64,000 nt of DNA from Escherichia coli (GTDB lineage Bacteria > Pseudomonadota > Gammaproteobacteria > Enterobacterales > Enterobacteriaceae), in the NCBI RefSeq assembly GCF_003991155.1, contig NZ_CP031293.1. One strand, written 5' to 3'. The notes under the pieces are model-generated. The model did not search any database. It worked only from the letters and a program-made list of their open reading frames with translations, and was not told the origin of the DNA. Position 1 is the stretch's first letter; every line of letters begins with the position of its first letter. Shown here piece after piece: positions 61,063 to 63,998 of this stretch. Made by a program: the position numbers and the translations under genes.

Positions 61063-62565
61063 ATGAATATCAGAAAACTGTTTTGTCCGGGCAACACCCC
61101 CCGGATTTTATTGTTTTTATTCTTTTTTGTTGTTTCTGCAATAACCACAATTGCATGCGGATACACTGAGAAGAATGCAACAGGAAATGTGCTGCTTCTG
61201 TTTCTCCTTCTGCTCCTTGCATACAGAAATACCCTCACATCCATTACAGCGCTGTTATTTCTGTTCTGTTGTGCACTGTATGCGCCTGCCGGTATGACGT
61301 ACGGTAAAATCAACAACAGTTTTATTGTCGCGTTGTTGCAGACCACAACTGATGAGGCAGCGGAGTTTACCGGGATGATTCCTGTTTATCATTTTCTGGT
61401 CAGTGCCGCGATTCTGGTATTCATGGTGATTTTCTGGCGAACACACCACCGCGGTCACCGTAACTGGCTGGCACTGCTGCTGTTCGTATTATGCTCAGTA
61501 AACAGCTGGCCGTTGCGGATGGTTAAAGGAACTGTTGTGGGGACAACTGACACATTGCGTGAAATGCAACATTATAAACAACTGAGTCAGCACGGGGCTG
61601 ACAACTGGAAAATCCTGCCGGGAACACCGTTATATGACACAATTGTTATTGTCACTGGTGAGAGTGTGCGCAGGGATTATATGTCGGTATATGGCTATCC
61701 CGTGCCAACCACGCCGTGGCTGAATACAGCTCCCGGTTTATTTATTGACGGCTATACATCGGCAGCAGCCAGTACCGTACCTTCCCTGAGCCGGACACTG
61801 ATTTATGACTATGAGCAGAACCCTGACTCCGGCAACAACATGGTGGCGCTGGCAGCAAAAGCAGGATACAGCACATGGTGGATATCCAATCAGGGAAAGC
61901 TGGGGGAGCATGATACACGCATCTCTGTTATTGCTTCTGATGCGGAGCATACCGTTTTCCTCAAGAAAGGCAGCTTTGCTTCCCGTAAAACGGATGACAT
62001 GTTGTTGTTACAGGAAACAGAACGTGCACTGGCGGATAAATCCTCTCCGAAGGTGATATTCCTGCACATGATGGGGTCTCATCCGAACCCGTGTGACCGG
62101 CTTCACTCCTGGCCGAATCATTACCTGGAGCAGTATCCCCGAAAGGTTGCCTGTTACCTCGCCAGCATCAGTAAACTGGATAACTTTCTCGGTCAGCTTG
62201 ATGGTATCCTTCGCCGGCATTCCCGTCATTTCGTCATGCTTTACTTTTCTGACCATGGGCTGTCGGTCAGCGACAGTGCTAATCCTGTTCATCATGATGG
62301 TCATGTGCAGGGAGGCTACAGCGTTCCCCTGATTATTACCGCCAGTGACATCACGTCTCATCAGTCCGTCAGCAGAAAAATCAGTGCCCGTCATTTCGCA
62401 GGTATTTTTCAGTGGCTGACCGGCATTCGTACTGAAAATATACCGCCATTCAATCTACTGACAGACGAAGATAATGAACCCATTATGGTTTTTAACGGAG
62501 AGAGGAATGTACCGGCAGACAGTCTGAAACCGCAGCCTCTGATTCTTCCGGTCAAGGGAAAATAA
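61063..62565 (+). CDS. Inner-membrane sulfatase-family protein (phosphoethanolamine-transferase-like)
   Basis: 500 aa with N-terminal multi-span membrane region and C-terminal sulfatase-like catalytic domain (TGESVRRDY ... HMMGSHPNPCDRL). Confidence 0.6.
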   Translation: MNIRKLFCPGNTPRILLFLFFFVVSAITTIACGYTEKNATGNVLLLFLLLLLAYRNTLTSITALLFLFCCALYAPAGMTYGKINNSFIVALLQTTTDEAAEFTGMIPVYHFLVSAAILVFMVIFWRTHHRGHRNWLALLLFVLCSVNSWPLRMVKGTVVGTTDTLREMQHYKQLSQHGADNWKILPGTPLYDTIVIVTGESVRRDYMSVYGYPVPTTPWLNTAPGLFIDGYTSAAASTVPSLSRTLIYDYEQNPDSGNNMVALAAKAGYSTWWISNQGKLGEHDTRISVIASDAEHTVFLKKGSFASRKTDDMLLLQETERALADKSSPKVIFLHMMGSHPNPCDRLHSWPNHYLEQYPRKVACYLASISKLDNFLGQLDGILRRHSRHFVMLYFSDHGLSVSDSANPVHHDGHVQGGYSVPLIITASDITSHQSVSRKISARHFAGIFQWLTGIRTENIPPFNLLTDEDNEPIMVFNGERNVPADSLKPQPLILPVKGK

Positions 62566-62924
62566 GCGTAATGTTCATCACCAGATTATGTACGATGAGT
62601 TTTCCACTGTTTATAGCAATTATCTTGCTAATAACCAGACAGGAGTAACCAGACCAACCGAAAACACCGGGGAGGTGATTACCCGCTGGCAGAGGAAATC
62701 CGGTTTTTTTTGATGTCAGCCATAACGTGTTTGACAATAAAACATTATGAAAGGGTGTTAATGAGTCCATGGGATAATTCATAAAAATAATTTATTGTGT
62801 TATCCTTTTCAAAAGAAATATTCAGAAGATAACCCCTGGCTGACAACCAGGGGAAGGGGACATTAACAGTGTTATTATTGGTGGATAAATTATTACTTGT
62901 GTGCAGGATACACTAATGCAATAT

Positions 62925-63998
62925 CTACTGATACTGTATGCCAGTATGTTTCATGCCTGCCGCTGAAAACGGCAATATCCAGGGCCAGACATATTCACCA
63001 TTCATATTTCTGCATTTCTGTACAATTTTCTCAGAAAGCGTCTCATCAATTCTTTCACGCAACTTCTCCTGCTGTCTTAAAATACTTTCGCATATTTCGA
63101 AATCATCTTCCTGCATCAGCATTTCGGCGCATTTAATGATTTCTGCCCGTTCATGCAGCACAGAGGAATGATTATAGAGCCAGTTTACAAACAGCAATGC
63201 TTCCGGATATTGCCCCCATAACGGGTGGTATGTGGCATAATAATCTTCGGCAGTATCCGGACCGCCTGAAAAGTTATGCCATACAGCAAGTGGAAATGGA
63301 TGCAGATTTCCGCACAGTATTTCTGCGATGTAAGTATTTGCCGCAAAGCCGCGACGAAATGCAGTTGCAGCTTTTACCAGTTCCCCATTAAGAAAATGCA
63401 GAAGGCCGAGTTCATACCAGTAAGGTGAAAATTCATCTGCATGTTCCTGCAGTATATGGCGTGCCTGTTCATGAGCGCCAGTGCGTAACAGTTCCGGTCC
63501 CAGTAGCCAGCGTGCACCATGATTATCTTCGGGATTGTAATCCAGTATTTTTTCAATGAGCATGATGGCATCCTGATGACGCCGTAAATGTGCATTTGCC
63601 AGGATTGCCGCATAGAGGGCACGAAGAAAAGGTCGGTTGTCAGGATGTATCCAGATGATTCTGCCACTGAAACCTTCAGGGATAAGACGATTGCCAACTG
63701 CCAGTCCTTTAAGGGCAGCATTCAGCGCCTTACGCGGGGCATTCTGCTCCAGAAATACGTATGCCAAGTGAGCGTGTACATCAATAAAGTCATTCTCCTG
63801 TCGGGCAAGGCGCCTGAGTTTGTTGATGTAACTTGTTTCGCTGATTTCATCCGCATCGTATGCATCAATCAGTTCTTCAAACTCATCCAGCAACGAGCCA
63901 AACCAGGTTTCCGGAAATATGAAACAGCCCTGGTTATCGTTCACTTCAAAGCGTAATTTGCCAGTCATATTCTGAACCTGTAAAAAAGGATGGACCAT
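62925..63998 (-). CDS. Hypothetical protein (at least 357 aa), helical-repeat-like; start near or beyond the window edge
   Basis: ORF on the minus strand with ATG at 63998, 2 bp from the window end, so upstream extension or a ribosome-binding site cannot be checked; alternative ATG at 63968. No family recognised. Confidence 0.4.
   Translation of the reverse strand: MVHPFLQVQNMTGKLRFEVNDNQGCFIFPETWFGSLLDEFEELIDAYDADEISETSYINKLRRLARQENDFIDVHAHLAYVFLEQNAPRKALNAALKGLAVGNRLIPEGFSGRIIWIHPDNRPFLRALYAAILANAHLRRHQDAIMLIEKILDYNPEDNHGARWLLGPELLRTGAHEQARHILQEHADEFSPYWYELGLLHFLNGELVKAATAFRRGFAANTYIAEILCGNLHPFPLAVWHNFSGGPDTAEDYYATYHPLWGQYPEALLFVNWLYNHSSVLHERAEIIKCAEMLMQEDDFEICESILRQQEKLRERIDETLSEKIVQKCRNMNGEYVWPWILPFSAAGMKHTGIQYQ

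Follow-up and report, generated by a model that had tools for sequence, protein, structure and literature searches.

The distal end of the window, by which we mean the whole 64,000-nucleotide stretch of Escherichia coli DNA that was analysed, very probably holds a known island-end module with an intact phosphoethanolamine (PEtN) transferase of the YjgX clade and a complete sisA gene. The sisA-transferase-hek module is already known, and we regard the finding as real and ordinary, with little that is new in it: the genes are annotated, matching DNA is common and the module is on record. Two minor points are new, namely that the tandem of the outer-membrane protein (OMP) gene and the transferase gene is kept in Salmonella, and that SisA falls within a family of solo TPR genes of environmental Proteobacteria. 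The analysis also has a corrective value in that an ORF that had been called unknown and possibly truncated is the virulence gene sisA.

Genomic context and layout of the module

The window sequence is identical to that of E. coli FDAARGOS_1284. NZ_CP070170.1 is 100% identical over the first 50 kb of the window as well as over the query 60900-64000, and the flank of the window in NZ_CP070170.1 contains an integrase, tRNA-Phe, yqgA and speC. The tRNA-Phe gene (pheV) lies 2.4 kb past the window end. The region is very probably the part of an ExPEC pheV pathogenicity island that lies nearest to the tRNA gene, with the order tRNA-Phe, tyrosine integrase (both just outside the window), sisA, PEtN transferase and Hek-family OMP. 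The same island carries the pap operon (papG-III), cdiBAI and pgt genes. Both the transferase ORF and the sisA ORF are annotated as genes by RefSeq in the identical genomes, and among the 5,426 complete E. coli genomes, matching DNA was found for sisA in 36% and for the transferase in 55%.

The gene order tRNA-int-sisA/shiA-"sulfatase orf"-tia/hek/hes has been recorded for SE-PAI and LAA module I (PMC7371111, PMC5539235, PMC13340028). As far as the account of Michelacci 2013 given within PMC7371111 goes, SE-PAI ('tRNA-integrase-shiA-orf(sulfatase)-tia-subAB2') has the same three genes in the same order and orientation as here, and LAA module I (sisA, PEtN transferase, hes; PMC5539235, PMC13340028) likewise shares the gene trio, its order and its orientation with the window. 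In all three, a tyrosine integrase at a tRNA gene adjoins the trio. The islands differ in their further cargo, since the window island is an ExPEC pheV island with pap (papG-III), cdiBAI and pgt while SE-PAI and LAA have subAB or LAA modules instead. The OMP allele of the window is of the Hek type, whereas its counterparts in SE-PAI and LAA are Tia or Hes.

Several smaller features accompany the three genes. A conserved hypothetical ORF of 122 aa (WP_001275823.1; 59555-59923, + strand), seen in the ORF list, the annotation and a protein cluster, is located 5' of the OMP gene; it has no Pfam, NCBIfam or PADLOC match and a marginal one in PHROGs (E 0.0034). We rejected the 377-aa representative of its cluster, an unrelated kinase-like protein, as a clustering artefact. 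On the opposite strand, a 76-aa 'hypothetical protein' (62552-62782) is annotated across the 3' end of the transferase gene. This is a doubtful gene with no match in NCBIfam, PADLOC or PHROGs, and it is frameshifted according to the annotation of another genome. In the convergent intergenic region, a terminator-like hairpin follows the sisA stop (62833-62853, - strand). None of the five proteins of the region matched the PADLOC models for anti-phage defence, and the matches in PHROGs were limited to sulfatase-like families without a name and a weak one to Lom. The sole Rfam match in 57-64 kb is a spurious rli40 at the hairpin of 60959-60983, which scores 29 bits where the gathering score is 100.

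The PEtN transferase and its possible acceptor

The 500-aa ORF at 61063-62565 (+ strand) is present in the ORF list and annotated by RefSeq (WP_059337646.1), and it follows adhesin genes as the original prediction had stated: the pap operon (papG-III, papX) and then a Hek/Tia-family OMP gene at 60141-60881. In a profile search, Pfam Sulfatase spans residues 193-446 (1.8e-37, 129.8 bits) and EptA_B_N passes its cutoff of 22.3 with 23.8 bits. The N-terminal domain has five hydrophobic segments in residues 15-154 and the AF2 model (pLDDT 88.6) places membrane-domain helices over residues 12-177; the predicted layout is a membrane domain of 4-5 helices and a periplasmic domain of the sulfatase fold. 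The model matches EcEptC (6a82; Foldseek 2e-18, TMt 0.72) and aligns with full-length MCR-1 (9nww) and NmEptA (5fgn) across ~550 columns. Pfam, the catalytic residues and the predicted fold agree on the inner-membrane PEtN transferase type that had been proposed, and we assign the protein to the PEtN transferase superfamily (EptA/MCR/OpgE; alkaline-phosphatase fold).

The proposal had been made dependent on the catalytic residues of the family, and the alignment shows that all of them are conserved (E98, E200, T238, H335, H340, D397, H398 and H411). T238 corresponds to T285 of MCR-1, the nucleophile Thr, and the set E200, T238, H340 (plus H335), D397, H398 and H411 aligns to MCR-1 E246, T285, H395, D465, H466 and H478, which are listed together with the TM-domain residue E116 as essential in MCR-1 (PMC12658134). 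These metal- and phosphate-site residues are invariant or nearly so among 46 clade members. E98 is invariant in the 46 members and aligns with a conserved Glu of the EptA membrane domain, from which we infer that it is the equivalent of E116. By analogy with EptA and MCR-1, PEtN would pass from phosphatidylethanolamine onto Thr238 in a Zn-dependent manner and, on the periplasmic side, would next be transferred to an acceptor.

The closest K-12 paralogue of the transferase is OpgE (30% identity over 513 aa, E 5e-75), while full-length comparison gave 23.5% identity and 2e-24 for EptC and 1e-07 for EptA. In a neighbour-joining tree, the YjgX clade lies beside the OpgE clade and outside it, suggesting that the two are sister clades. 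With 30% identity and a position outside the OpgE clade, the enzyme does not qualify as an OpgE orthologue, and in K-12 opgE and the yjgX remnant are found at separate loci. OpgE (YbiP) is a PEtN transferase that decorates osmoregulated periplasmic glucans (PMC3818809) and shares with the island enzyme an architecture in which a membrane domain of ~165-190 aa at the N-terminus precedes a periplasmic sulfatase domain. The island enzyme differs in belonging to a separate clade and in being 27 aa shorter, and E. coli has opgE too. With OpgE as the closest relative that has been characterised, the acceptor is a little more likely to be a glycan of the periplasm or envelope than lipid A.

The original prediction had suggested lipid A or the LPS core as the target, for which we found no specific support, the nearest characterised paralogue being OpgE. 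An enzyme of this type (EptA/EptB/EptC/MCR-like) would render the envelope less negative and raise resistance to cationic peptides and polymyxin. The top partial matches in NCBIfam are indeed CptA/EptC models (7e-31), the EcEptC catalytic domain is the best PDB match by sequence and by fold, and some homologues bear the source name 'lipid A phosphoethanolamine transferase'. The structural match to EptC, however, does not discriminate because the PDB contains no OpgE structure. Fold and catalytic residues are shared with EptC/CptA, EptA, EptB and MCR-1, but the identity is only 21-24%, and the NCBIfam scores for EptA, EptB, CptA and MCR fall far below the cutoffs. No lipid A, Kdo or heptose PEtN transferase model of NCBIfam reached its cutoff: the best score was that of the CptA subfamily (107.4 bits vs 404), the EptA models stayed at 37.6 to 58.3 bits where 561 to 660 would be required, and the MCR models gave at most 34 bits against cutoffs of at least 1075. 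In addition, OpgE is much closer at full length than EptC or EptA, the 55% of complete E. coli genomes with matching DNA (complete or remnant) speak against this type, and the gene is not an mcr gene according to NCBI. We consider a lipid A or core enzyme unlikely. Since the transferase resembles OpgE and not the lipid A enzymes, starting the experimental work with colistin or lipid A may be misdirected.

In K-12 the counterpart of the transferase gene is the pseudogene yjgX (b4575) of the leuX-adjacent KpLE2 region, of which the window has the intact form. The orthologous match covers 61379-62560 of the window at 91.3% nucleotide identity, and yjgX adjoins intB at leuX, the same position relative to the integrase as in the window. 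Unlike the intact window copy, yjgX is missing approximately its first 105 codons, and K-12 has an IS2 at the place that sisA would occupy. The same gene appears in the literature as 'YjgX' (PMC6174562), as 'putative opgE' near integrases and pap (PMC8946752), and as the 'sulfatase orf' of tRNA-integrase-shiA-orf-tia (PMC7371111).

Comparison with other intact alleles, which differ by up to 9% in protein, gave dN/dS values of 0.14-0.23, suggesting that the gene is under purifying selection between intact alleles and is selectively maintained. At least 80% of the gene is covered in 1450 of the 2973 matching E. coli genomes, while about half have only truncated or IS-split copies; together with the K-12 pseudogene, this indicates that the gene is not under selection everywhere. 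The gene might even be drifting island cargo with no current function, as would fit the state of yjgX in K-12, the 5'-deleted or IS1/IS4/IS150-split copies in many genomes, and a defensin screen in which the K-12 yjgX deletion proved to be a false positive (PMC4808223). We find this very unlikely, given that the window copy is full length with every catalytic residue in place, that the dN/dS range holds across alleles as divergent as those above, and that a near-full-length match exists in 1450 complete genomes.

Linkage of the transferase to an adhesin gene

The OMP gene (60141-60881, + strand) encodes an outer-membrane beta-barrel with a Pfam OMP_b-brl match of 4.5e-21, and its 90% identity cluster includes 'adhesin/virulence factor Hek' and 'Tia invasion determinant'. 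These matches point to an adhesin of the Hra family (Hek/Hra1/Tia/Hes/PagN). Salmonella has the same OMP-transferase tandem, with 52% identity for the OMP and 57% for the transferase. Between the two genes of the window, we noticed a bidirectional terminator-like hairpin with a 10-bp stem (60959-60983) and, 38 bp 5' of the transferase start, the best sigma-70-like match of the region (TTTACA-16-TATTAT, 10/12; 60998-61025, + strand), a candidate promoter by consensus match.

The transferase might act as a partner of the adjacent adhesin by placing PEtN on the OMP itself or on the surrounding LPS or glycan. Precedents for PEtN transferase relatives that modify proteins are PptA, which acts on pilin, and Campylobacter EptC, which acts on FlgG. 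The order of OMP gene then transferase gene, with constant orientation and spacing, recurs at different tRNA sites with different integrases, occurs with or without sisA, and is kept in Salmonella in spite of the divergence given above; 'orf-tia' has also been treated as an ancestral unit (PMC7371111). On the other hand, the strong hairpin and the separate promoter-like site lie between the two genes, distant clade members (at most 52% identity) have no OMP neighbour, and co-transfer on the same island arm accounts for the linkage without functional coupling. We judge a partnership quite improbable. A functional linkage would open a first way to study an envelope enzyme of pathogenic E. coli that is widespread and uncharacterised. 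We also considered the K-12 ompX-opgE pair as an ancient duplicate of the hek-transferase pair and rejected it: the orientation differs and the similarity between OmpX and the Hek-like OMP is marginal.

Identity and family of SisA

The minus-strand ORF reaches a maximum of 357 aa (62925-63998) and is present in the ORF list as originally predicted, while the accompanying views that it may be truncated at the window edge and has no recognisable family did not hold. When the sequence was extended past the window in the source genome, an in-frame TAA turned up 16 codons before the ATG at 63998, and neither ATG nor GTG nor TTG occurs between the two; the ORF is complete because of this upstream stop. 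The RefSeq start is the second ATG at 63968, which gives a gene of 1,044 bp (62925-63968, - strand) and a protein of 347 aa, and the homologues of 330-350 aa align from residue 1. Pfam identifies the protein as a TPR protein (TPR_19, 26.0 bits with a cutoff of 25; ANAPC3, 27.5 bits with a cutoff of 27.2).

Judged from its sequence, this gene is sisA, encoding ShiA-like inflammation suppressor A. Both of the published sisA qPCR primers (PMC2978726) match exactly, at 63727-63746 (- strand) and 63444-63468 (+ strand), and face each other to give a 303-bp amplicon. The 90% cluster of the protein holds a member that UniRef names 'ShiA-like protein', and the identity to the S. flexneri protein P0103 is 83%, next to a reported value of 83.3% between SisA and ShiA (PMC13340028). 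The same paper identifies as sisA the 1,044-bp gene that PGAP annotates as 'tetratricopeptide repeat protein', and gives the gene order seen here. At 1,044 bp and 347 aa, the window gene also has the length of sisA in both PMC13340028 and PMC3256949. The gene comes straight after the integrase of the island, at a tRNA gene. The same length of 347 aa and the same place next to the island integrase, on its downstream side, go with SisA of UPEC CFT073 (Lloyd et al. 2009) and with ShiA of the Shigella flexneri SHI-2 island. Nothing substantive differs from CFT073 SisA, and the window gene is the sisA allele. Its nucleotide identity is 99.6% to the copy of ABU 83972, while it is 84-89% to sisB/shiA-type alleles.

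The AF2 model of SisA (pLDDT 93.2) is a TPR solenoid that is all-alpha after an N-terminal hairpin, and inspection of the N-terminus showed no hydrophobic signal-like stretch. Foldseek against the PDB returned consensus TPR designs, the TPR domain of O-GlcNAc transferase (OGT), MamA and LapB; in both the Foldseek and the sequence profile search of the PDB, the matches were generic TPR proteins with no informative specific match among them. Conserved residues of the groove in SisA are N111, R112, D148, N149, R205, N211 and Y213. SisA has been reported to damp early host inflammation in urinary-tract infection, an animal-model phenotype that we cite at second hand from PMC13340028 and PMC7545054.

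The SisA family comprises ~237 representatives at 50% identity (E <= 1e-30), and homologues with 35-55% identity occur in Oxalobacteraceae, Rhizobiales, Rhodobacterales, Myxococcota and Verrucomicrobium. They are usually solo genes beside integrases, transposases, a resolvase, HipA, AbiE-like or restriction-modification genes. Across the neighbourhoods in 34 species-representative genomes, no conserved partner gene was found, the sole exception being a HipA toxin common to five loci that probably carry one and the same element. Domain fusions in the family are mostly extra TPRs, and two members have an N-terminal PRiA4_ORF3. Free-living, non-pathogenic bacteria are among the hosts of the homologues, which is awkward for a dedicated host-directed role.

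SisA could act inside the bacterium as a cytoplasmic TPR scaffold in mobile-element biology or regulation, with an indirect effect on inflammation. The all-alpha solenoid model without a signal-like stretch, the size of the family and its environmental lineages, the solo genes near mobile-element, HipA, AbiE-like and restriction-modification genes, and the PRiA4_ORF3 fusions are all consistent with this, as is a sisB/shiA-type copy in laboratory derivatives of E. coli B such as T7 Express, also reported for REL606 (PMC3256949). The lack of a PADLOC or PHROGs match and of a conserved partner gene argues the other way, and so do the published animal phenotypes, ascribed to the gene itself and cited here at second hand from PMC13340028 and PMC7545054. 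We hold an intracellular role to be possible and on balance doubtful.

A broader and rather unlikely proposal combines both ideas: the adhesin and the OpgE-like transferase would form a cassette that puts PEtN onto the adhesin or its glycan/LPS, and SisA/ShiA would be the cytoplasmic TPR scaffold of an ancient mobile-element family in environmental Proteobacteria, with an indirect anti-inflammatory effect. If such a cassette existed, part of what multi-gene deletions seem to show about hek, hes or sisA would stem from the transferase. The 5.5-kb 'hes-sisA' deletion also takes out the transferase gene, and the published Δhes-sisA phenotypes are confounded because this gene lies between the two, which are frequently studied or removed as a pair, and is lost with them.

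Identity and setting of the minus-strand gene

The ORF list contains both of the genes that had been read from the sequence, one of 500 aa on the plus strand (61063-62565) and one of 357 aa on the minus strand (62925-63998). The original prediction was thus real as an observation but accurate only in part, because it had described the second ORF as possibly truncated and without a recognisable family. This DNA also occurs in genome L001, where it runs past the window edge, and on its minus strand there an in-frame TAA lies 16 codons 5' of the ATG at 63998, with no ATG, GTG or TTG between them; the gene lies wholly within the window. 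Its RefSeq start is the next ATG, at 63968, for a gene of 1,044 bp and a product of 347 aa, and the homologues of the product are 330-350 aa long, with the alignment starting at their first residues. The protein scores above the Pfam cutoffs for TPR_19 and ANAPC3. Its AlphaFold model (53 homologues, pLDDT 93.2) has a short N-terminal β-hairpin followed by an all-α TPR solenoid, and Foldseek matched it to generic TPR proteins only (consensus TPR designs, the TPR domain of O-GlcNAc transferase, MamA and LapB).

Published evidence settles the identity of this ORF, at the level of sequence, as sisA. In LAA module I, the 1,044-bp gene annotated by PGAP as "tetratricopeptide repeat protein" is sisA, and it is followed by a phosphoethanolamine (PEtN) transferase and the outer-membrane β-barrel protein Hes (PMC13340028). 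Both sisA qPCR primers given in PMC2978726, originally from Lloyd et al. 2009, match exactly within the ORF and face one another, at 63727-63746 (-) and 63444-63468 (+). The window protein is 83% identical to its S. flexneri homologue, in agreement with the 83.3% published for SisA and ShiA (PMC13340028), and by exact-sequence look-up its 90% cluster includes a UniRef entry named "ShiA-like protein".

DNA 100% identical to 60900-64000 was found by megablast in several E. coli chromosomes. Over its initial 50 kb, the window is 100% identical to 724751-774750 of NZ_CP070170.1 (strain FDAARGOS_1284), and as a whole it therefore corresponds to 724751-788750 there. Beyond the window edge in that sequence, we found a tyrosine integrase and then a tRNA-Phe whose neighbours, yqgA and speC, mark it as the pheV site, indicating that the window stops ~2.4 kb before the tRNA-proximal end of a pheV pathogenicity island. 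The genes upstream of the module are the pap operon (papI to papG-III, then papX), IS66, pgtPCBA, orphan cdi toxin fragments, nanXY, cdiBAI and sugar-utilisation genes. The region is the already-described module of integrase, sisA, PEtN transferase and Hek-family adhesin in a common ExPEC island.

A PEtN transferase nearest to OpgE

The interpretation of the original prediction was half right: the 500-aa protein is of the PEtN-transferase type, as judged by catalytic residues and fold, while the reading of sisA as family-less and possibly truncated failed. The protein matches Pfam Sulfatase with 129.8 bits and EptA_B_N barely over the cutoff. In its alignment with 20 family members and five K-12 paralogues, 16 positions are invariant, including E200, T238, H335, H340, D397 and H398, while H411 and E98 are nearly so. 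The six named residues align by HMMER with E246, T285, H390, H395, D465 and H466 of the MCR-1 catalytic domain; H411, which aligns with a conserved EptA His among the K-12 paralogues, is taken as the putative equivalent of MCR-1 H478. In MCR-1, E116, E246, T285, H395, H466 and H478 are each essential (PMC12658134). The same catalytic residues are invariant in a wider alignment of 46 members, in which C344 and C364 are nearly invariant, a pattern that fits a periplasmic domain. Because of this conservation, the absence of the family's catalytic residues, foreseen as the result that would speak against the assignment, is not what we found: all are present. In fold comparison, the AlphaFold model (pLDDT 88.6) matched the catalytic domain of EcEptC at 2e-18, and full-length MCR-1 and NmEptA across ~550 alignment columns.

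The NCBIfam models at equivalog and subfamily level (CptA/EptC, EptA, EptB and MCR) all scored far under their cutoffs for this protein. In pairwise BLASTP against the five K-12 paralogues, OpgE was the best match (30% identity, 513 aa, 5e-75), with YhbX (3e-27), EptC (23.5%, 2e-24), EptB (6e-12) and EptA (1e-07) weaker, and in a neighbour-joining tree the transferase and its relatives form a clade beside the OpgE clade. These comparisons place the transferase nearest to OpgE among the paralogues compared. OpgE transfers PEtN onto osmoregulated periplasmic glucans (PMC3818809); glucan, core and protein are therefore all candidate acceptors, and not lipid A alone. In K-12 (L013, 4451-6598), housekeeping opgE is convergent with ompX, another small outer-membrane β-barrel gene. 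We considered this pair as an echo of the hek-transferase pair and rejected it as superficial, the similarity between the outer-membrane proteins being marginal (25 aa, E 3e-04).

The K-12 pseudogene yjgX, which adjoins intB at leuX, is 91% identical to window 61379-62560 and is the remnant of the transferase gene. The gene has already been noticed in the literature, without functional work: it is named "YjgX" at pheU, pheV and selC islands (PMC6174562), is the "putative opgE" beside pap and integrases in a GWAS of bloodstream infection (PMC8946752), and corresponds to the "sulfatase orf" of SE-PAI.

Consensus matches alone define two features ahead of the gene, namely a bidirectional hairpin between the OMP gene and the transferase (60959-60983; perfect palindromic 10-bp stem, T-rich flanks on both strands) and the best promoter-like site of the region (60998-61025), ahead of the transferase start. 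Rfam gave no genuine match in the region, only a spurious rli40 match at the hairpin. An annotated 76-aa ORF overlapping the transferase 3' end has no family match, is frameshifted in another genome and is a doubtful gene candidate.

The OMP-transferase tandem and allele histories

Beyond the literature consulted, the constant core of the module is the gene for the Hek/Hra1/Tia-family adhesin (OMP gene, 60141-60881 (+)) followed by the transferase. We compared window 60141-62565 with four further loci (L057, L058, L059 and L060). The tandem occurs without sisA at pheU in strain KY 1497 and at pheV in STEC005, with a sisB-type gene at selC in ECCNB12-2, and in Salmonella enterica with 52% (OMP) and 57% (transferase) identity to the window proteins. 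Transferase relatives at ≤52% identity have no OMP neighbour; one such distant lineage is on IncI-type plasmids, 3' of a DUF2569 gene, and the others are solo chromosomal genes. The OMP-transferase linkage may be functional, or may reflect mere co-transfer. In the plasmid sister lineage (L016, L017 and L063; 48-52% identity), SNase, HTH_39, DUF2569 and transferase genes lie, in this order, on conjugative backbones near hok/gef copies and Tra/exclusion genes, and its P0020 protein cluster has 1955 member sequences.

The transferase gene was matched in 2973 of 5426 complete genomes, only 1450 of them with near-full-length copies; many of the remaining copies are 5'-deleted (K-12 type) or IS-split. 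Among intact alleles, dN/dS was 0.14-0.23 (transferase), 0.19 (sisA) and 0.11-0.22 (OMP gene), ratios by which all three are under purifying selection where intact. At ≥99% identity, the transferase allele is found in only 15 genomes, whereas the sisA allele is found in 1367/5426 complete E. coli genomes. These differing allele histories indicate recombination inside the module. A sisB/shiA-type allele, more divergent at 80-90% identity, occurs in 578/5426, including laboratory B-strain derivatives; PMC3256949 reports such a copy for REL606.

The published "hes-sisA" deletion (5,485 bp) takes out the transferase too, and the biofilm and adhesion phenotypes of that mutant should be read with caution, as the transferase loss confounds their assignment.

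The SisA family and other island genes

SisA and ShiA are reported, second-hand, to attenuate host inflammation (PMC13340028, PMC7545054, PMC5539235). Beyond the publications consulted, the SisA family (~237 representatives at 50% identity, E ≤ 1e-30) extends to Oxalobacteraceae, Rhizobiales, Rhodobacterales, Rhodospirillales, Myxococcota and Verrucomicrobium, a distribution hard to square with a dedicated host-directed role. In the neighbourhoods examined, members are solo genes with no conserved partner, frequently near integrases, transposases, Tn3 resolvase, HipA, AbiE-like and restriction-modification genes. By inspection, the SisA N-terminus has no signal-like hydrophobic stretch. It is possible that SisA functions inside the bacterium and affects inflammation indirectly.

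In a Morganella morganii contig (L007), a SisA-family gene (3325-4347, 55% identity) has a Tn3-family transposase on one side and a resolvase on the other. The start of the resolvase overlaps the end of the SisA-family gene, which is thus placed like a transposon passenger or operon partner. In two family representatives (P0401 and P0425), the SisA-like TPR region is preceded by a fused N-terminal domain, PRiA4_ORF3 (PF07929).

Elsewhere in the island, the cdiB-cdiA-cdiI contact-dependent inhibition locus is complete, with a 9.9-kb cdiA annotated as a tRNA nuclease effector and with downstream orphan VENN-motif toxin fragments and small ORFs (17003-28988, 33926-37112). The pgtP-pgtCBA cluster (38080-44303), for phosphoglycerate transport and two-component regulation, is flanked by transposase remnants. 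The nanX, nanY and ythA genes (29751-33706) share 96-98% identity with their K-12 counterparts, which adjoin yjgX/yjgZ at leuX, and this points to a common island ancestry.
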